From Gammaproteobacteria bacterium (GTDB lineage: Bacteria; Pseudomonadota; Gammaproteobacteria; JAJPIJ01): a stretch of 64,000 nucleotides of DNA. The notes below the pieces were generated by a model. The model did not search any database. It was not told where the DNA came from and saw nothing but the letters and a program-made list of their open reading frames with translations. A program made the translations under genes and the position numbers. Positions 43,485-53,538 of the stretch are shown piece by piece; within the stretch, counting starts at the first letter, position 1; every line of letters starts with the position of its first letter. The stretch is from the NCBI GenBank assembly GCA_021324815.1, contig JAJPIJ010000046.1:64750-128749 (forward strand). The letters are read 5' to 3'.

Positions 43485-43530
43485 TGATGAAAGCATAGTA
43501 CAAACGGAGTGGCGGAGAGGGTGCTCATGC
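43485..43530. repeat. left diverged direct repeat bounding the CRISPR-Cas island
   Basis: TGATGAAAGCATAGTACAA-N18-TGCTCATGC; partner at 51673-51717. Confidence 0.7.
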
Positions 43531-43715
43531 TCCGGGCTGGGCGTGAACCACCTCAAGGGGAAGGCACTTTGCCGGACTCTAAAGAATTTCTTGTCGGCAC
43601 GCGACCACCATCGGAAAGCCTGATGTTACTTGGTCGCCCGTAGGTTATTGACCTTTTAGTGTTTTTTAAGTTGAGAGTTGTTCAAGCACATTCCACAGTG
43701 TGCCTGTAGGGGGGA

Positions 43716-44108
43716 TTGCCTCACGATTCCCGCAGTCGCGGCGACTGCGGCGCCCTCAATGCCGGTGCGCTCATACCGCCAGCTGCTGCCGCCTCACGAT
43801 TCCCGCAGTCGCGGCGACTGCGGCCCCTTTGTGAATGATTGACCCCAAAGCTACGGTTTCCGCCTCACGATTCCCGCAGTCGCGGCGACTGCGGCTGAAG
43901 CTGAAGCCGTTGCTCACGCTGACCGAAGTGCCGCCTCACGATTCCCGCAGTCGCGGCGACTGCGGCTATAGTGCTTTTAGCACTTCTATCCATTGCCAAC
44001 TTCCGCCTCACGATTCCCGCAGTCGCGGCGACTGCGGCGCCCGCGCGGTAAAAATTCTCGCCATGCAGGTTGCCGCCTCACGATTCCCGCAGTCGCGGCG
44101 ACTGCGGC
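43716..44108 (-). CRISPR. CRISPR array, 6 repeats of 36 bp and 5 spacers of 34-37 bp
   Basis: Repeats at 43716, 43789, 43860, 43931, 44003, 44073; minus-strand repeat GCCGCAGTCGCCGCGACTGCGGGAATCGTGAGGCGG; the copy at 43716 is degenerate (trailer end). Confidence 0.98.
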
Positions 44109-44300
44109 CCCCCCCCTCCCAAACACCTTAAGAATCCAACGCCTGCCGCTGCATGTTGCGAGCACAAGGCGAGATGAGACGGGGGGACACTAGAGAACCG
44201 GAAGACGGTGGTCGCCATTCACCTGTTTCTCCAGGCAAAATCGAAGTGCGAGCGTCCATGAGGTTTTGGGCCAGCACTTCCGCACTCGCAACGTCGCCGC
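44109..44300 (-). promoter_or_regulatory. CRISPR leader
   Basis: Non-coding stretch between the intact terminal repeat and the tracr region, on the cas side; recurring CTCGCA/TGCGAG motifs. Confidence 0.6.
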
Positions 44301-44311
44301 ATTGTTATAGA

Positions 44312-44385
44312 GCGCAGTCGTCGCGACTGCGGGAATCATGCCAACCCAATGGCGGAGGGTTGATGGTCGGTGGCCTGTGGCCAAA
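44312..44385 (-). ncRNA. predicted tracrRNA
   Basis: 28-nt anti-repeat (44313-44340), stem CAACCC/GGGTTG enclosing CCGCC complementary to the repeat 3' GGCGG, 5' hairpin TGGCC-ACA-GGCCA; lies between cas2 and the array. Confidence 0.82.
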
Positions 44386-44427
44386 AAATCAGGCTAATAC
44401 TTTGGGCAGGAAGTTTCAAGTTCAGAA

Positions 44428-44718
44428 TCAGATGATGGTCACCCGTGAACGCACTTCGTAGGGCAACCCCATTGCGTCGATAATCAGGCTGGCATCACTG
44501 CTGTTCGGGCCGAGCGAAACAAATAACACCTGATCCTCGTCGTGGTTAATCAAATCCCAAAGCTCGGCCTTCAGCTTCGCCAGGCGGAGGTCATCCAGCG
44601 GACATTCAAAGACCGAGTATTGCAGGCGCACGCCAAAACCCTCCAGTGAACGCGCCACCCGCCGCAGCCGTTTCGGGTCGCTGATGTCGTAACTCACAAG
44701 GTAGCGAATCCGGCTCAT
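44428..44718 (-). CDS. cas2: CRISPR-associated endoribonuclease Cas2
   Basis: YLVSYDISD.KRLRRV, G.RLQYSVFEC; ATGA overlap with the cas1 stop. Confidence 0.96.
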   Translation of the reverse strand: MSRIRYLVSYDISDPKRLRRVARSLEGFGVRLQYSVFECPLDDLRLAKLKAELWDLINHDEDQVLFVSLGPNSSDASLIIDAMGLPYEVRSRVTII

Positions 44719-46518
44719 CGCGTGGTAAATCCGTGATAGGTCAATGCTTCTCCGCGCACAAAACGCCACAACTGCCGCGCCTGTACTTCAAGCATCCGGC
44801 GATAAGCCATCTTGTAGCTAAACTCGGGGTGGCTGACCTCCGTATCCAGCCGCCGAAACCATGCCTCCCAGAACGGCCGCCGGCCTTTTTCTGTCAGGAA
44901 AGTCCCATTCGCGCTCTTGATGAAATCCTCGGGGCCAAGTTCACCACGATTAATGAGGCTGATGGCGACGCTGTCGGCGATGAGGGGTCGAAATTCCTCC
45001 ATCAAATCCAGCGCCAGTGCGGGGCGGCCATAACGCGGCTGGTGCATGAACCCTAGAAATGGATCAAGCCCCACTGTATGGCAGACGCCGGTCAGTTCCT
45101 TTGCCAACATCGAATAACCGAGAGAGAGCAGCGCGTTCACGGGATCGCGCGGCGGACGGCGGTTGCGCCCGCGCCAGTCAAACTTCCAGTCAGCCCTTTG
45201 TTTCAGCATGGCTTCAAACTGCTCAAAATAGAGTGCCGCGGCGCCGCCCTCAAAACCAATCAATTCCGTAATGTCTCCCGCTGATTCCGTGGCGTCACGG
45301 AAACCAGCCATCAAACTCAGGACGCGATCCGATGCATCACTGTTACGCATGAGCAAGACGCGCTGGTTATGGATTTTGGCGCGGATTACTTCGCGGGCCA
45401 ATTGCAGCCGCAAGCCGGGCAGCTCAAACAGCCGATATTGCCCGCGTCGTGCGTCCACCCCGCTGGCGGGCAGGCCGCAGAGCATTCCAAGAAAGCGCCC
45501 CGCCGGCGAAAAATAGGCAACCTCAATGCCCAATTCCAGACACGTCTCCATGGCCTGGGCCGTCAGTTGAATTGCACCATAGCAATAGATCGCCCGCACC
45601 TGCTGGCCGGGAATTTTACGCACGCTTTCGCCTTTGACGCTGACGATCAATTCGTCGCCGCGCTGGCCGATTTGCGCGCCGGGCGTTTGTACCACCAGCA
45701 CTTCGCCCTCATCCCCACCGGGGCGTGGTGGCTGCAATGTGGGTTCTTTACCCGTGGATTCCGCGGCAAAATCCAAGGCTTCCAAAATCCGGTCGCTAAC
45801 TGCATCTTCAGGTTCTTCAGCAAATTCGAACCGTAGCTGGCCCTCTGGCTCGACATTCATGCGCCGTTTTGCCCACCAGAGTGATTCGTTGGGCAGGCAT
45901 ATGGGGTAGGCGGAGCAATAAAGACAACGCGCGTCATTCTTCAGCGGAGGAGGACATTTCCCGCTGGCGGCAACTGCCCGTGCTTCCTCGATGGATTTGC
46001 GGACTTTGTCGAACAGCTCCTCAGTGAATTCTACCGGCACACGTCGCTTGTCTGCTGCGTAATAAATCCAGCCGCGCACGGCATTGATCCCATGCTCACG
46101 CAATAGCAGTTCGTAGGCGGCGACCTGCACAGCGTCTGGTTCTTTCGCCACGCGGCCGCCTTCGTTATCACGGCGGGCGGAGCCTTTTTTGTAGTCAATG
46201 ATTTCCGCGCCATCCGGCCCCCCCCTCGACCACATCCACGACGCCGACCAGACCGAGCGATTCGCTTTCCAGGCGCAGGCTGCGGAGCTTCGACCCTTCC
46301 GGCAAACCAAGTTCCCTGGGATCATCCAGTTTGGAAGGCGCGTCCACGTTGCGATGAACATGGCTGCCGGCCACCGTGTCGGCGTTTTCCTGAAAAATGT
46401 TTTCGACCCATTGGAAATAAAACAGCCGTGGGCAATAGACGAAATTGTTGAGCCGGCGCACGGGCATTGGCGGCTGGGGCTCCAGTGTGCCGCTGACTTG
46501 AAGCGGGGCGTCGCTCAT
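44715..46518 (-). pseudogene. cas1: Cas4-Cas1 fusion interrupted by a +1 frameshift (600 aa if repaired)
   Basis: Cas4 N-part (YCPRLFY, G.VDVVE) in one frame; DYKKG, Q..AY, C..CS...IC and Cas1 (EG.AA..YF, R.RRPP.DP.NALLS..Y, LALDLMEEFRP) in the next; break at the C8 run 46218-46225. Confidence 0.9.
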
Positions 46519-46524
46519 GGAGGC

Positions 46525-49500
46525 TCAAGTTCTCCTGCTCCACTCCTCTGGCGGCTCAATTCCCCATGCCTTCAATCGCGCGGCATTGATGGCCATGCAG
46601 TGCCGCCAAGCTTCTTGGCTCACGTAGCCCCAAAGAGCTTTGCCAACGACCAGATGCTTGGGTTGCGGCACGCTAGTAGGTCCGCCTTTCAACGCGGCGG
46701 CGTGGTCGTGGATCCATGTGTGCAAATTGGCGATGTCAGCGAAAAAGTTCGGGTGACGGCTGTCACTTGCCTTGGGCACGCTCTTGACCGCTTGCTGCCG
46801 CAAGCGGCGCTTTTCCGCTTCGTCTGCGGCCTGCTTAGACTGTTTCATCGCTTCGTCCGCTGTCAGGATTCGGATCTGAATGCGACTCTCCTTGGATTGT
46901 TCGCCGAACTTTCGCTTCTCCCTCTCGCTGACAAAGAACGTGTCCGGCTTGATGTCCTCCACGGGGATGACGGCAGCCTGGGTGGCTGCTTTTTTGCCCC
47001 GTCCGCGTCTTGGCTGGTGACTCGATAACATTTCCGGTTTCCGCTCGGAGCGAAGTCGCGAATGGATGCTCCAAACGCGCGGGTCGGCCACGGCGCGTAA
47101 GCCGAGGTTCACGGCAGCATTGATGTCGGCGTGAATCAGCTTCGGCTCCTTTTGTTGATTTTCCTCAAGCATGACCGGCTCAAATCGAACGATTGGCTCG
47201 CCTTTAGTCCGTCGCTCGTGCCCGGCTAAAAGCCTGCTGATTGGTATGAAGATGCTGCCGCCCGCGTCGGGCGCGAGCAATGTGCGCGCGGGCAAGCCTT
47301 TGGATTTGGCATCGTCATTGGCGCTTTTCACCTGCTCAAAAAAGAGTTCCCACTGCTTGCGTCGTTTTTCCTGTTCCGTCCGTTCCTCTTTCCTTTCCTC
47401 CGGCTTGCAAACGCGCCATCGCCATTTCGGCTCTTGCATTGGATCGCCGGAAAGCTCCGTGGCGCGGAAACCGGCGACGCCGGTTCGCGAGCAGAAGCGC
47501 GACGAGTAGGCGGCGGGTGTCTCGACCAACGGCAAACCAAATGGCTCGCACATCTGCTTGAGCTTGTCGCGGATAGCCCGGTGACACCATTTCATCAGGC
47601 GGCTGTTCTCCCGCGGCGCGCGACCCTGGCTGGTGCGGTAGCGGCTGAGGTCTTCGATGACGATGAAATCAACAATGCCGCACCACTGGTTGCCTTTCTG
47701 GGGAGTGACGGGCTGGCCCTTGATATCCGCCTTCACGTATTCGCCGTGGGTGTCTTTAGCTTGGCGCAATTGGGCCTCGGCGTGGTCTTTCGGCTCGGTC
47801 GGCTTCTCGAGCGTCAAACCGAGCGCCTGCGTCAGAATCATGTGGGCCGTCTGATTCCGGCGCTGCTCCTTGATTTCGTCCAGTTTGCCGAGAATCGTCG
47901 GGCACGGATCGGGAATGCTTTCATCGCGAGAGGCTTTCGGCGCGCAGCCAATGTCGCGCCGCAACATTTGGTTGAGCGACTGGCAGCGTTTCCGCAGTTC
48001 CTCAAATTGCTCGATGCGTTCGATGGAAAGCCCGCGCTGGCCGGCGAGCCACTTTTCCTCCTCTGTCAGCCCGTCGCGTTCATCGGCTGATCGCAGAGTA
48101 AAATCCAGCAGGTGACAATCCGGCCTGTCCGGGTGCTTTCGCCAGACCAGCCGCCCGCGTCGAGAGCGGTAGATACGGTTTGCAATCGTTTCCAACCAGT
48201 CTGGCAGCTTTTCGACCAGCGACTTCAACTGCGTTTTCAACGCCTGCACGATTTCCGGATGCTGCTCCGGTTCTTCTTCCGCTTTGTCCAGCTGCGTGTT
48301 CCTGGCCTTGGCTTTTTCGTGAGCGTCCTTGTTCAACCATTCGTGCGGATCGCTTTCAGCGATTTCCTTAATGGCGATGCGGCGGCGCTTCGCCTGATCC
48401 TCGCGCTTGACCTCATCCTGCGGATCGAGAAACCAAATCCAGCGGTGAAGTTTGCTGGCGAAGGACTGCGCGCGGCGGAGGGCGATGAGCAGCTTCGTAT
48501 TCTGATCCGGGAACGAGACCCGTTCTGACAGTGTCGCTGCATCCCTGATGCTGTCATCCAGCAATTCGAGTTGGTGGAACTCCTTGAGCAAATCCAATGT
48601 CTGCTGGCTCTCGGCCTTCGTTGCGTTTCGACCGGCGGACCCGGAAAGCTCCCGGCGGAAATCCTCGCTGCCGGGCACGGGTTTTCCGTCCTTGAAGTCC
48701 GGGCGATAGACCTTGGCATCTTCGCCGGGCAATCGTAGCAAGCCGGTCGTGAGCACCCGCGCATACCAGTCGCGGCGTTCTCCATTGTGCTCGGTTCTGC
48801 CGATGAAGCGCGCGTTCTTCCGCTCGTCGTCCGACAGGCAGCAACTCACTTCGATGATGGCGTAAGCGCCGGCCTGTTTCTGCCCAAGGTCAACCGAGAG
48901 AAGACGGAATGATTTGAGGTCAGGATCGGCGAACCACTGGCGGGGGAATTCCTTATTCCCTTGCACTTTCGACCAGTCTTCGTGAGGCCACCGCAGCGTC
49001 GAATCGTGGTCGTCGCCGTTCCAGTTGAACTGCATCGCCCACGGCCATTTCTCGCGTCCCATTTCCTCCCGCACATGAGCGATGAACCTGTCCTCCTTCG
49101 GCGTGAGTACGAAGTTCAGCAGCAGTCGGTCGGGTTGGTCATTGCGGCTGCCCGGCTTCCAGTCTGGCATCAGCGAAACGGCGTGCTTCTTGAAGTCGTG
49201 CAAATCGTCGTCGGGAATTCCGAGCGCCCGCATCAGCGGCTGCGCCCAGTTCGCGGACTGCAAATCCTCGTTCTCAGACAGCGCGCGCGCCTCATCCCGC
49301 AAGAGCCGCGGCGCGGTGTAGTGAATGCGAACCTCCGCCGGGCGATAGAGCACACCAGCGTTGTCGCCGCACTTCACGGCAATTTGCGTGGTGAAGGAAA
49401 GGCCGTCGGGGCTGGCCTCGTGCGCGAAGCCGCCTTGCGACGCGCCTTTGAAATCGAACAATCGGCGTGAATCGCGCGCGTCCGCGGGGGTGTATTGCAC

Positions 49501-51600
49501 GGGCCGCTTCTTCTTCTCCAAGTCCTCCAGCACGTCACAATACCGGAGGTAGTCGCGGACGATGTTTGTGGAATAGAGGTTTTTTACCCGCTCCTTCTCC
49601 TCGTCAGGAGTGGGCGCTTGCCAGACACACCAGTTGTCCTTCTTGACCAGTTCCTCGAACAGGCGACTGTCGCCCATATCATCGCGGTGTTGGCGCTGGT
49701 AGGCGGCGATGCAATGCTTCAGCTTTGTTTCCTTTCCCGCCGAATATGTCTCGCCCGGCGCGACCACTTTGTTCCATTCCTCGCGCAGTTCTTCGTAGCC
49801 GCGCAGAGCTGCTTGGCTGATGCCGTAGCGATAGATGGTCTTCGGGTCTGCCCCATCGGCTACGCCGAGCGATTCGTGAATCCGCCGCATCGCGGCGAAG
49901 CGCGGGTCGCCGCCGGTCTCGCTAAAGCCGCCGGGAATGAAATCCTCCTCCTCGCCATCATCGGCTTTGCCTTTCTCGCGGGCTTTGCCTTTCTCGCGGC
50001 CTTTGCCCTCGTAGAGTTTCTTAAGTTCCTCGAGTTTTTTCGCCTCATTGTCCCGCTCCTTCTGCTTTTGCCGGATTTGGTGCGGTGACTTGATCGCTTC
50101 CTCGTAGGCGGCATAGTCGAACTTCGTCCAGCCGAAGTAGCCAGGTTTGCAAGCGCCGCTTGGTTCAGCCGGGTCGCCTTCCTGCGCGAGAAATCCGCAC
50201 ATCGCTGTGAAGCTGGGGAAGATGTAGCCGAGCTTACGTTTGAGCCGGGGGATAAAATCTGTCCTAGCAACGGATGTGACCGTGGGTTGGTTGCCTGATT
50301 TGGCTGCGGCTTTGCGGGCTTTCTCCACTTTTTCAGCGGGTTCTTGGCCGTCGTCGCTTCCGCAGAGATCAAACTTGTCAACGAACTCAACATAACGGCG
50401 CTTGTCATTCTTGAGCAGCCAACCCGCGTAACGGTCCTTCAATCTGGCCTTGAGCAGGGTCGCTGTGAACTCCGAGCCGCCGTCAAAATGGAACAGCACA
50501 AATAATTCGACACGAACATTGTCTTTGCCCGGCCCGCTCCGCTTCCAGTTTTGGATGCGAAAAGTGCTCGCGGATTCGGGATTTTCCTTCCGGCGTTGTT
50601 CTTCGTCGTGTCGCTTGGCTTGAATCAGCTCCTGCAGCCGCTTCAGTTCTTTGGTTACGTCAATATTGCTCCCACCAAATCGCTCGAACACAAAACAAAA
50701 CGTCTTGTCCTTCAGCATTTTTTTCGCGGTGTTCAAACATTGCTCAAGCTGATTGATTGCGTCCTCGCCAACGAGATAGCCCGTGTCGTCGCTGTCTCCG
50801 GCCGCCTCGGCGGCCTCTTGTTCGCTGTTGGCTTCCGGCGCGTCGCCATTCTCACCTGAGGGCTCTCCGGCTTCTTCGCCCGCTTCTACACCGCTCAAAC
50901 AACTGTCTTTGACCGATCGCGCTGATAATTGTCTGAGCGCCGCTGCGTCCGCTTGGAACAAGGCATCCATGAAATCGTAGATGCCCTGTTGGTTGCGGTA
51001 AGTTTTTTCGGCGGGAGGTTCGCCGCCCTTGTGTTTCCAGCAGAGCCAGCCAGGGTCTTCGTTCGCCAGCTTTTGGGGCGTGCCCCGGCTTTTCTCCGGG
51101 AACAGTTCGCCGATGACGCCGCGAAAAACATCGTGGAGCTTCCCGTCCGCCCGCTTTGGAAACTTCGCAAAGGCGTGGCCGAAAATGCGATCAATGCACT
51201 GTTCCCGCGTGATGGATTTCGCGTCCAACCCAAGGGTGCGCGCCAGCGAGTGCTTCAATCCCGCTCGTTTGCCGCCTTTGTGAACGAAGTCGTCCCACCG
51301 CCCCTCGATGCAGCCGTCAGCGGTCTTGGGCTTGCCGTTCCCGAACAACTGCTCGGCAAACTGGGCCATCGGTGTCGGTTTTTCCTTTCCGTCCTTATCT
51401 TTCTCAACCATCCCGTCCGCCATCGCCGCGAGCGCGAAGGCGTAGTAGTTCACCGCATCCTGAAACAGCGCGTGATGCTCCCACAGCATTTGCTCGCCGA
51501 GTTTGCGCGCGGCTTTCGGATCGTCGGCGAGCGATTTGAATCCGCCGTGACCGTCTGCAATTTCGACTGCGCTGACGCGGCCTTGGTAGATGCGGTTCAT
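46525..51600 (-). CDS. cas12b: type V-B CRISPR effector Cas12b (C2c1)-like, 1691 aa
   Basis: RuvC-I SVDLG (D904), RuvC-II IVIEDL (E1316), RuvC-III HADINAA (D1492); N-terminus NRIYQGRV..LW.HH.LFQ.A.NYY and ETPAAYSSRF as in Opitutaceae-type C2c1; linked cas4/1, cas2, tracr and array. Confidence 0.92.
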   Translation of the reverse strand: MNRIYQGRVSAVEIADGHGGFKSLADDPKAARKLGEQMLWEHHALFQDAVNYYAFALAAMADGMVEKDKDGKEKPTPMAQFAEQLFGNGKPKTADGCIEGRWDDFVHKGGKRAGLKHSLARTLGLDAKSITREQCIDRIFGHAFAKFPKRADGKLHDVFRGVIGELFPEKSRGTPQKLANEDPGWLCWKHKGGEPPAEKTYRNQQGIYDFMDALFQADAAALRQLSARSVKDSCLSGVEAGEEAGEPSGENGDAPEANSEQEAAEAAGDSDDTGYLVGEDAINQLEQCLNTAKKMLKDKTFCFVFERFGGSNIDVTKELKRLQELIQAKRHDEEQRRKENPESASTFRIQNWKRSGPGKDNVRVELFVLFHFDGGSEFTATLLKARLKDRYAGWLLKNDKRRYVEFVDKFDLCGSDDGQEPAEKVEKARKAAAKSGNQPTVTSVARTDFIPRLKRKLGYIFPSFTAMCGFLAQEGDPAEPSGACKPGYFGWTKFDYAAYEEAIKSPHQIRQKQKERDNEAKKLEELKKLYEGKGREKGKAREKGKADDGEEEDFIPGGFSETGGDPRFAAMRRIHESLGVADGADPKTIYRYGISQAALRGYEELREEWNKVVAPGETYSAGKETKLKHCIAAYQRQHRDDMGDSRLFEELVKKDNWCVWQAPTPDEEKERVKNLYSTNIVRDYLRYCDVLEDLEKKKRPVQYTPADARDSRRLFDFKGASQGGFAHEASPDGLSFTTQIAVKCGDNAGVLYRPAEVRIHYTAPRLLRDEARALSENEDLQSANWAQPLMRALGIPDDDLHDFKKHAVSLMPDWKPGSRNDQPDRLLLNFVLTPKEDRFIAHVREEMGREKWPWAMQFNWNGDDHDSTLRWPHEDWSKVQGNKEFPRQWFADPDLKSFRLLSVDLGQKQAGAYAIIEVSCCLSDDERKNARFIGRTEHNGERRDWYARVLTTGLLRLPGEDAKVYRPDFKDGKPVPGSEDFRRELSGSAGRNATKAESQQTLDLLKEFHQLELLDDSIRDAATLSERVSFPDQNTKLLIALRRAQSFASKLHRWIWFLDPQDEVKREDQAKRRRIAIKEIAESDPHEWLNKDAHEKAKARNTQLDKAEEEPEQHPEIVQALKTQLKSLVEKLPDWLETIANRIYRSRRGRLVWRKHPDRPDCHLLDFTLRSADERDGLTEEEKWLAGQRGLSIERIEQFEELRKRCQSLNQMLRRDIGCAPKASRDESIPDPCPTILGKLDEIKEQRRNQTAHMILTQALGLTLEKPTEPKDHAEAQLRQAKDTHGEYVKADIKGQPVTPQKGNQWCGIVDFIVIEDLSRYRTSQGRAPRENSRLMKWCHRAIRDKLKQMCEPFGLPLVETPAAYSSRFCSRTGVAGFRATELSGDPMQEPKWRWRVCKPEERKEERTEQEKRRKQWELFFEQVKSANDDAKSKGLPARTLLAPDAGGSIFIPISRLLAGHERRTKGEPIVRFEPVMLEENQQKEPKLIHADINAAVNLGLRAVADPRVWSIHSRLRSERKPEMLSSHQPRRGRGKKAATQAAVIPVEDIKPDTFFVSEREKRKFGEQSKESRIQIRILTADEAMKQSKQAADEAEKRRLRQQAVKSVPKASDSRHPNFFADIANLHTWIHDHAAALKGGPTSVPQPKHLVVGKALWGYVSQEAWRHCMAINAARLKAWGIEPPEEWSRRT

Positions 51601-51672
51601 GTGCCCCCCGTTTATGGAAACGGTTAACTCAGAACTCTAGTGACAGAATTACCCCCTGGTGGGGGTGCGTTT

Positions 51673-51717
51673 TGATTAAAGCATAGTACAAGCTACGTAC
51701 GCAGAAAATGCTCATGC
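51673..51717. repeat. right diverged direct repeat bounding the CRISPR-Cas island
   Basis: TGATTAAAGCATAGTACAA-N17-TGCTCATGC. Confidence 0.7.
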
Positions 51718-51861
51718 AGCATGTTTGGCGGGGGAGGGAGGGGCACAGCGCGGCAAAAGGCGCGGCGAAATGCGCCACGTGCCTCAACGCAGGGTGGTTG
51801 AGGGGGACAAATCGACAACCAGATGCTGACGGCCCCGACGCGGGGCCATGGCGTCAGACTG

Positions 51862-53538
51862 TCAAAACAAGCCGACGATGTTGCCGTGCTCGTCGATGTC
51901 GATCTTTTCGGCGGCCGGCACCTTGGGCAGGCCGGGCATGGTCATCAAGTCGCCGCAGATGGCGACCACGAAACCGGCGCCGTTCGACAGCCGCACTTCG
52001 CGCACGTTCAGCGTGTGGCCAGTGGGGGCGCCACGCACGCTGGGATCGGCGGTGAATGACATTTGCGTCTTGGCCATGCAGATCGGGAAGTGGCCGTAAT
52101 CCTTGTTCCATTCGTCGAGCTGTTTTTTCACCGCATCGGCGAAGGTCACCTGGCCGGCGCCGTAGATCTTGGTGGCGATGGTCTTGATCTTCTCGGTCAG
52201 CGGCAGGTGATCCTCATAGACGTAGGTGTGCTTTTTCTTCGATTTCTCGATGACATCGATCACCGCATGCGCCAGATCCTCCGCGCCGGCGCCGCCGTGC
52301 GCCCAGTGCCTGGCCACGACAAACCGGCCGCCCAGCGATTCGATCTTGTCCTTGAGCAGCTTGATCTCGGCGTCGGTGTCGAAGGTGAAATGATTCACCG
52401 ACACGACGCACGGCAGGCCGTAGTGATCGCGGATGTTGGTCAGGTGTTTTTCGATGTTGACCATGCCCCTGGCGAGCGCGTCCAGGTTCTCCTTGTTGAG
52501 TTCCTCCTTCCTGACGCCGCCATGGAACTTGAGCGCGCGGATGGTGGCGACCAGCACTACCGCCGAGGGATTCAAGCCGGCCATGCGGCATTTGATGTCG
52601 ATGAATTTCTCCGCGCCCAGGTCGGCGCCGAAACCGGCCTCGGTGACGCAGTAATCGGCGAGCTTGAGCGCGGTGCGCGTGGCGGTGACGCTGTTGCAGC
52701 CGTGGGCGATGTTGGCGAACGGCCCGCCGTGGATGAACGCGGGGTTGTTCTCCAGCGTCTGCACCAGGTTCGGCTTGATGGCGTCCTTGAGCAGGACGGC
52801 CATGGCGCCGTGGGCCTTGAGGTCGCGCGCGTAGACCGGCCGCCGGTCGACCTGGGTGTAGCCGATGACGATGCGGCCGAGGCGCTCCTTCAAGTCCTTG
52901 AGCGAGGTGGCCAGACACAGGATGGCCATGATCTCGGAGGCCACCACGATGTCGTAGCCGTCCTCGCGCGCGAATCCGTTGGCGGTGCCGCCCAGGCCGA
53001 TGACGATCTTGCGCAGCGCGCGGTCGTTCATGTCCACGACCCGCTTCCACTGGATGAGCCGCGGGTCGATGCGGAGTTCATTGCCGTGGTTGATGTGGTT
53101 GTCGATCATCGCGGCCAGCAGGTTGTGCGCGGCGCCGATGGCGTGAAAGTCGCCGGTGAAGTGCAGGTTGATGTCCTCCATCGGCACCACCTGGGCATGG
53201 CCGCCCCCGGCGGCGCCGCCCTTGACCCCGAAGACGGGGCCGAGCGAGGGCTCGCGCAAACAGATGATGGCCTTTTTGCCGATCCTGTTGAGGGCATCGC
53301 CCAGACCCACGGTGGTGGTGGTTTTGCCCTCGCCGGCGGGCGTCGGGCTGATGGCGGTGACCAGGATGAGCTTGCCGTCCGGCCGCTTCTCTATTTCCCG
53401 CAGGTAATCGAGCGAGAGCTTGGCCTTGTAGTGGCCGTAGGGCTCGAGATATTTGCTGTCGATGCCGAGTTTTGTTTTTGCCAGTTCGATGATGGGTTTC
53501 ATCGTTGCCTTTTGGGCAATTTCGATGTCCGACTTCAT
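51862..53538 (-). CDS. fhs: formate--tetrahydrofolate ligase
   Basis: [58 protein letters not shown]. Confidence 0.97.

Follow-up and report, generated by a model that had tools for sequence, protein, structure and literature searches.

The short non-coding stretch at 44382-44313 of the minus strand is, with a probability of about 0.9 and as judged from sequence comparison, the gene for the tracrRNA of a CRISPR-Cas12b locus of type V-B. It was studied within a window of 64,000 nt, i.e. the whole stretch of DNA that was analysed, and from there in related loci of metagenomes and genome bins. The predicted RNA is short and devoid of a third stem, and this stem-3-less form appears to be the rule across a large clade of Cas12b whose repeats end in GGCGG rather than a peculiarity of this locus. 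A minus-strand Cas12b tracrRNA pairing with the repeat in two places, as put forward in the initial annotation, is supported by the locus, by conservation and by covariation; other claims made there, namely the length of the RNA and the role of the enlarged protein, fared less well, as described below.

The minus strand of the window carries a compact CRISPR locus, where cas12b, cas4/cas1, cas2, the tracrRNA element, a leader of about 200 nt and the array follow one another on a single strand. The cas12b gene (46525-51600, minus strand) encodes a protein of 1691 aa, which matches the NCBIfam Cas12b equivalog NF033949 over the full length of the model (1172.8 bits for a cut-off of 150, residues 39-1670 being aligned to positions 1-1252 of the 1253 of the profile) as well as the Pfam C2c1 RuvC-like family, and which exhibits the conserved RuvC motif set. 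D904, E1316 and D1492 are invariant in an alignment of 20 homologues and, considering the motifs in which they lie, would be the RuvC catalytic residues. The cas4-cas1 fusion gene (44715-46518, minus strand) was recognised with a Cas4g/Cas1g profile and is spread over two frames (46518-46195 and 46361-44715), the upstream one covering profile positions 2-85 and the downstream one positions 91-546. The switch of frame occurs inside a run of eight G at about 46218-46226; it could stem from a homopolymer assembly error, a real frameshift or a slippery site, and the locus may then be partly decayed or the G run wrongly assembled. Another G run directly precedes the first repeat (44109-44117). The cas2 gene (44428-44769, minus strand; Pfam CRISPR_Cas2, 72.4 bits) probably starts at the ATG at 44718, and the array (43716-44108, minus strand) alternates six repeats of 36 nt with five spacers, its periods being 70-73 nt. 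In minus-strand orientation the repeats terminate in GAGGCGG, and the 3' end of the last copy is degenerate. A gap of 320 nt separates cas2 from the array and holds the tracrRNA element at its head, 43 nt past the cas2 stop; the element is encoded in a cas12b locus, near the array and downstream of the Cas12b equivalog, and the tracrRNA gene of AacCas12b is likewise placed in its locus.

Read on the minus strand, the element begins with stem 1, a GGCC-ACA-GGCC hairpin (44382-44372) recognised from the sequence and its fold, which an extra outer U-A pair extends to UGGCC-ACA-GGCCA (44383-44371). Then come an 8-nt linker, ACCGACCA (44371-44364), near-invariant in the alignments of the relatives, and a second hairpin (44363-44341), where the 7-bp stem 2 pairs UCAACCC (44363-44357) with GGGUUGG (44347-44341) around the 9-nt loop UCCGCCAUU (44356-44348). 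The CAACCC/GGGUUG stem originally proposed on this strand is found again, with the gain of an outer U-G pair. In the loop, the bases CCGCC (44355-44351) are predicted by co-folding to be the partner of GGCGG, the last five bases of the repeat, and the 28-nt anti-repeat (44340-44313), delineated by mismatch search and co-folding, adjoins stem 2 and faces repeat positions 3-30. Folded as a single strand, the segment 44290-44400 forms both hairpins, but with a z score of -2.0, 4 of 200 shuffled sequences folding as well; being only 2 standard deviations better than shuffles, the single-strand fold energy alone is weak evidence.

Pairing with the repeat is far more discriminating. When the window was searched for the 28-nt repeat segment with up to three mismatches, seven sites were obtained, namely the six repeats in plus orientation and 44313-44340 in minus orientation, the latter with two mismatches at the DNA level, and no match was expected by chance (100 shuffles). 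At the RNA level, these two DNA mismatches amount to one G-U pair and one A-C mismatch in the co-fold, just as had been claimed for the last 28 nt of the element. When the 70-nt RNA is co-folded with a repeat and the 20 nt of spacer after it, -27.6 kcal/mol is gained relative to the separate folds, compared with -5.3 +/- 2.9 kcal/mol for 200 shuffled tracrRNA sequences, the best of which reached -15.7 kcal/mol. Two duplexes are formed, i.e. the 28-nt repeat:anti-repeat duplex 1 and the five-base duplex 2 between the loop and the repeat end, the latter worth -9.9 kcal/mol; the claim that CCGCC meets GGCGG is corroborated by this energy and by the matched change CCGTC/GACGG in relatives. Confronted with 71 repeats, the anti-repeat of the window paired best with its own (-55.4 kcal/mol).

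The repeat of the window is a near-perfect palindrome with a 9-bp stem, unlike most repeats of the clade, L033, L086 and L099 having been noted as well. Repeat and anti-repeat can each form their own hairpin, and hairpin repeats are more typical of tracrRNA-independent Cas12 systems. The anti-repeat has changed along with the palindromic repeat, from UUGAAAUCGCG, as is usual in the clade, to CCCGCAGUCGCG, and the resulting repeat:anti-repeat duplex is more stable than that of any other of the 71 loci, at the energy just quoted.

In a protein database where 7998 candidates were scored, 278 Cas12b relatives were retained at E up to 0.001. Some twenty clusters of 1644-1760 aa are 47-84% identical to the Cas12b of the window, and identity falls to about 35-41% in a far more numerous set of roughly 1330-1515 aa. 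Starting from the alignment of 20 Cas12b homologues, 80 related loci were found in metagenomes and 76 in genome bins, the comparison being one of metagenome and MAG loci only; the bins belong mostly to Verrucomicrobiota, but also to Elusimicrobiota, Omnitrophota, Nitrospirota, Lentisphaerota, Bdellovibrionota and others. Arrays were detected by a simple finder in 99 of these loci, i.e. 100 array-bearing loci with the window, and the consensus repeat of 95 of the 100 is 36 or 37 nt long with a GGCGG end, as printed, while the remainder of the repeat varies widely. Regarding the other five, the repeat of L084 ends in GACGG, that of L122 is of the same kind with one base more as printed, that of L133 is given as its reverse complement, and those of L100 and L148 are shortened by contig ends. 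Upstream of the array and no more than 450 nt from it, 92 of the 100 loci (71 of them non-redundant) possess a CCG[C/T]C loop on a 7-bp stem with 6 or 7 pairs formed, the 9-nt loop length being part of the search pattern. The order of the parts in the relatives is that of the window, with a hairpin closed by GGC/GCC, the ACCGACCA linker, stem 2 with its 9-nt loop and the adjoining anti-repeat.

From a hand-checked alignment of 54 sequences, a covariance model, R1, was built. It gives a single match in the window (64 bits, E 1.4e-15), as well as in the whole 2.37-Mb genome, and matches in 61 of the 80 metagenome loci and 58 of the 76 genome-bin loci (119/156); 115 matches lie downstream of cas12b and on its strand, and many of the R1-negative loci stop too soon after cas12b to hold the element. 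Rfam searched at E up to 1 over 43500-46600 returned no tracrRNA match, only five chance-level matches to microRNA or sRNA families far below thresholds; as Rfam has no family for this element, it provides no independent curated model.

The two stems are kept by compensation. In the 54-sequence alignment, 97.7% of the cells of both stems are paired compared with 74.6% in shuffles, and changes on both sides are seen at 10 of the 11 stem pairs, i.e. at all four pairs of stem 1 and at six of the seven of stem 2, where 99.2% of the cells are paired and where five of the seven positions exhibit four to six pair types. Doubly changed cells number 117 against 26.3 in shuffles, a count reached by none of 500 shuffles, although the sequences are kin and such shuffle statistics overstate their independence. 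When the partners were slid by 1-3 columns as a control, only 35-60% of the cells were paired. With RNAalifold, a wide alignment of 155 nt recovered stem 2 only, whereas stem 1 was recovered with a tighter alignment. G-U pairs are common, in 35 of 54 sequences at one position of stem 2 and also in the repeat:anti-repeat duplex, which fits the transcription of both RNAs from the cas strand, since the other strand would give A-C mismatches.

Repeat and anti-repeat change together as well. Over the 71 loci, the duplex with the own repeat has a mean of -32.6 kcal/mol against -22.4 kcal/mol with foreign repeats, and none of 2000 permutations of the partners reached the observed mean. All six standard pair types occur where the anti-repeat faces repeat position 28, and four to six at each of positions 26, 24 and 23. 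For only 13 of the 71 tracrRNAs does the own repeat rank first, alone or tied, the median rank being 5, because many loci share similar repeats. The loop and the repeat end are far less variable, with CCGCC/GGCGG in 69 of the 71 loci, CCGTC/GACGG in one (L084) and a one-base offset in the repeat consensus of another; so near-invariant a pairing is by itself no evidence either way. In L084, however, 33 repeats end in GACGG and the loop reads CCGUC (CCGTC in the DNA), and the same matched change is seen in elements of L118 and L146. At the level of sequence, these matched CCGUC/GACGG changes can be taken as direct evidence for the predicted second, five-base pairing.

In a sub-clade of 1700-aa Cas12b about 50% identical to that of the window (L052, L078, L084, L085 and L139), an insertion of about 25 nt interrupts the anti-repeat, and further copies of the GCGCUCGC motif are present before stem 1.

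Among known guides, the tracrRNA of Cas9 (type II) is likewise a trans-acting RNA with an anti-repeat and encoded beside the cas genes. It differs by its scaffold and effector, by the absence of a loop-to-repeat-end pairing and by the position of the spacer, which in the mature crRNA precedes the repeat part on the 5' side. A closer match is ChCas12b from Candidatus Hydrogenedentes (1496 aa, PDB 9KLN), the guide of which, as detailed in the available excerpts of PMC12204704, has a stem 1 of 5 bp, a linker of 7 nt, a stem 2 of 6 bp (-69 to -64 with -33 to -28), a second repeat:anti-repeat duplex of five bases (-60 to -56 with -5 to -1) and, within the loop of stem 2, a stem 3 at -52 to -41, the main anti-repeat following directly after stem 2. 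According to the same excerpts, the guide of AacCas12b has the same elements, with two repeat:anti-repeat duplexes and three stems (PMC12204704). The element of the window shares with ChCas12b, as far as those excerpts describe it, the succession of stem 1, a linker of 7-8 nt, stem 2, a 5-bp pairing between loop and repeat end and an adjoining anti-repeat, together with an enlarged Cas12b protein. The difference resides in stem 2, which in the ChCas12b guide as excerpted encloses 30 nt, including stem 3 and two linkers, but here 9 nt, without room for a hairpin; the internal hairpin is indeed missing, as initially noticed. Measured from the start of stem 1 to the end of stem 2, the scaffold spans 42 nt here versus 64 nt in ChCas12b, counted on the excerpted numbering. 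The pairing logic being kept, the absence of stem 3 marks a variant of the family rather than an exclusion from it. The last base of the ChCas12b repeat is C(-1), so that, in the excerpted numbering, this repeat does not end in GGCGG (PMC12204704), and the protein itself matches the Cas12b of the window in the RuvC region only (E 1.9e-11). With AacCas12b of Alicyclobacillus acidoterrestris (PDB 5U30 and related entries), the likeness lies in the dual-RNA guide with two repeat:anti-repeat duplexes, again as excerpted, and the difference in the presence of stem 3 and in a protein of about 1130 aa, from chain lengths.

A guide of this kind may already have been seen in experiments. EbCas12b is one of the 4 out of 14 Cas12b loci which gave interference in E. 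coli, and its putative tracrRNA was mapped by small-RNA sequencing between cas12b and the array, as stated in excerpts of Strecker et al. (2019; PMC6342934). By its name, EbCas12b possibly comes from an Elusimicrobia genome, and the clade described here includes Elusimicrobia loci (L039 and L112) with the same tracrRNA; EbCas12b may be a member of this clade, with a tracrRNA that has perhaps already been mapped. Literature searches on Cas12b in Elusimicrobia and on C2c1 tracrRNA in Opitutaceae found no report.

The suggestion that the enlarged protein compensates for the missing hairpin finds no support, since the same short tracrRNA accompanies Cas12b of very different sizes and the large ChCas12b (1496 aa) keeps stem 3. 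A complete-looking cas12b frame together with an R1 match downstream of it was present in 91 loci, where the frame measures 1163-1760 aa (median 1422 aa). Compared with a 1440-aa relative having the same RNA type, the Cas12b of the window differs mainly at residues 73-490 and by a few C-terminal insertions.

Besides the copy downstream of cas12b, a further R1 copy lies 5' of cas12b in 13 related loci. Ten of these copies were examined (L044:5521-5650, L099:5529-5655, L028:5362-5500, L053:1059-1190, L100:971-1110, L078:573-660 and L027:6220-6350, as well as L138:5660-5797, L118:2290-2424 and L146:5690-5822 on the minus strand), the further loci being L054, L114 and L102. According to their folds, all ten run through stem 1, the linker and stem 2, then a hairpin whose 3' arm leads to GAGGCGG or GAGACGG and on into unique sequence. 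Such would be the layout of a natural single-guide RNA made of just these parts, as read from sequence. In five of the ten, the unique part opens with 9-10 bases that are found again between the element and cas12b, against a recurrence rate of 5% (150/3000) for random 24-mers from the same neighbourhoods, some of the ten loci being close kin. Cas9 uses a long tracrRNA to repress its own promoter, as reported in excerpts of PMC10120712, and by analogy the sister copies may be the Cas12b counterpart of this self-repressing form; in the excerpted part of the same paper, where 18 V-B loci are listed, no such element is described. Upstream of cas12b in the window, a search with filters off gave no second tracrRNA-like copy, the best score being 8.3 bits (E 0.11).

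Regarding the ends of the RNA, the proposed length of about 70 nt stands at the 5' end, which is plausible, but not at the 3' end, which was assumed: conserved sequence continues past the anti-repeat, with no terminator-like site there. On the 5' side, a candidate promoter retrieved by our own scan (TTGAAA at 44419-44414, 17 nt, TAGCCT at 44396-44391, minus strand) stops 8 nt before stem 1; such a site is present in 30 of the 71 non-redundant relatives and stands 6-8 nt before stem 1 in 26 of these 30. This TTGAAA-17-TAGCCT site is probably the promoter of the tracrRNA. A stricter promoter scan of 43600-44800 retained no site, and a terminator scan of the minus strand retained none between the element and the array; two terminator-like sites were found elsewhere, the first within cas2 (minus strand) and the second on the plus strand, against 1.4 expected in shuffles.

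Past the anti-repeat lies a conserved module, where UGCGAGUG (44290-44283) and CGCUCGCA (44254-44247, minus strand) are able to form a stem of 7-8 bp. Both motifs were found in 69 of the 71 loci, with a spacing from GCGAG to CUCGC of 37 nt in 59 and 38 nt in 10. In the 59 rows with the 37-nt spacing, each of the seven pairs is formed in 55-59, and the stem remains unproven because none of the pairs has changed on both sides. A third motif copy, GCUCGCA, occurs in the leader (44155-44164, minus strand), about 50 nt before repeat 1, and in most loci the last CTCG motif is about 50-55 nt away from the first repeat. The distance of the module to the array is constant, whereas that to the anti-repeat start ranges from 14 to 84 nt, so that the module leans towards a leader element over a part of the tracrRNA. 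The leader motifs may act as an RNA stem, as a leader signal for spacer integration or as a promoter element. This rigid arrangement of the leader recurs in nearly all loci of the clade (44155-44300 of the minus strand in the window, and about 70 related loci).

The conserved module raises the question of a longer RNA, which would run through it to about 44245 and end in the stem formed by 44290-44283 and 44254-44247, enclosing a conserved GG.AGUGC segment; at roughly 140 nt, such a tracrRNA would hardly deserve to be called minimised. In this respect, the conservation past the anti-repeat counts in its favour, with the CTCG of the second motif invariant in 60 sequences, as do the near-fixed spacing of the motifs, the formation of each pair in nearly all rows, with one-sided C to U changes on both arms that fit this strand only, and a path from the anti-repeat to the module free of terminator-like sites. 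Yet the module pairs never change on both sides, the module keeps its distance to the first repeat rather than to the anti-repeat, which fits a leader better, the T runs after its stem are not directly adjacent in most loci, and the single-guide-like sister copies are limited to stem 1, linker, stem 2 and a repeat:anti-repeat hairpin; overall, the longer RNA is rather unlikely. Alternatively, the element could be no separate gene but the 5' part of one transcript running through the leader into the array, tracrRNA and crRNAs being cut from the same precursor. Consistent with this are the location of the element on the same strand about 200 nt upstream of the array, a distance from anti-repeat start to array that is constant across loci at 172-253 nt, and scans in which neither a minus-strand terminator-like site between the two nor a second promoter was detected. 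Those scans are weak, nevertheless, and also missed the promoter-like site before stem 1; moreover, a leader usually has its own promoter, and one tracrRNA for six or more repeats would be limiting, so that a common precursor is judged unlikely.

A still different origin was considered, namely a decayed, inverted copy of the repeat with hairpins arisen by chance and devoid of function. A repeat finder does class 44313-44341 as a copy of the palindromic repeat core at 79%, and the single-strand fold energy, as said above, is only 2 standard deviations better than shuffles. This explanation is contradicted by 119 of 156 related loci, belonging to several phyla, in which the entire element is conserved together with its flanks, and by the compensation seen in both stems as well as in the loop pairing, which render it extremely improbable.

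As a tracrRNA gene, the element would most likely work as follows. Transcription, driven by a promoter located just after the cas2 stop, would begin with stem 1 itself or 1-3 nt ahead of it, and the RNA would fold into stem 1 and stem 2, joined by the 8-nt linker. The pre-crRNA would be bound at two places in each repeat, the 28-nt anti-repeat on repeat positions 3-30 and the CCGCC of the stem 2 loop on the last five bases of the repeat, next to the spacer, closing a pseudoknot. The long duplex would then be processed, for instance by RNase III, and Cas12b would hold the two-RNA scaffold, the spacer 3' of the repeat guiding the cleavage of DNA. One may go further and propose both that the 42-nt core and the anti-repeat are all the scaffold that the clade needs, i.e. 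the shortest natural V-B guide with about 70 nt once fused against about 91 nt for ChCas12b, and that the tracrRNA heads a transcript of leader and array; taken together, these two propositions are speculative and more doubtful than not. With the single-guide-like copies of the sister loci, nature seems to have already tested the sufficiency of the short core.

The mechanism is the known one, and the comparative data bring the scaffold rules of a big uncharacterised branch. For this large and mostly uncultured branch of Cas12b, spanning Verrucomicrobiota, Elusimicrobiota, Omnitrophota and others, the proposed RNA partner is now fixed and the covariance model R1 finds it in new loci. Stem 3 of the Cas12b guide would be dispensable in nature, while the five-base pairing between loop and repeat end is kept and co-evolves, which bears on guide design and on the reading of the Cas12b scaffold. 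The practical value of the locus at hand is modest, its protein being very large and the short scaffold being common to many smaller relatives.

This Cas12b has no match in 60 other genomes from the same family and class as the genome of the window, which suggests that the locus was gained by transfer. Before cas12b, a gap of 270 nt (51601-51870, minus strand) contains a terminator-like GC-rich hairpin at about 51835-51855, and the upstream neighbour of cas12b is a convergent, unrelated-looking metabolic gene.
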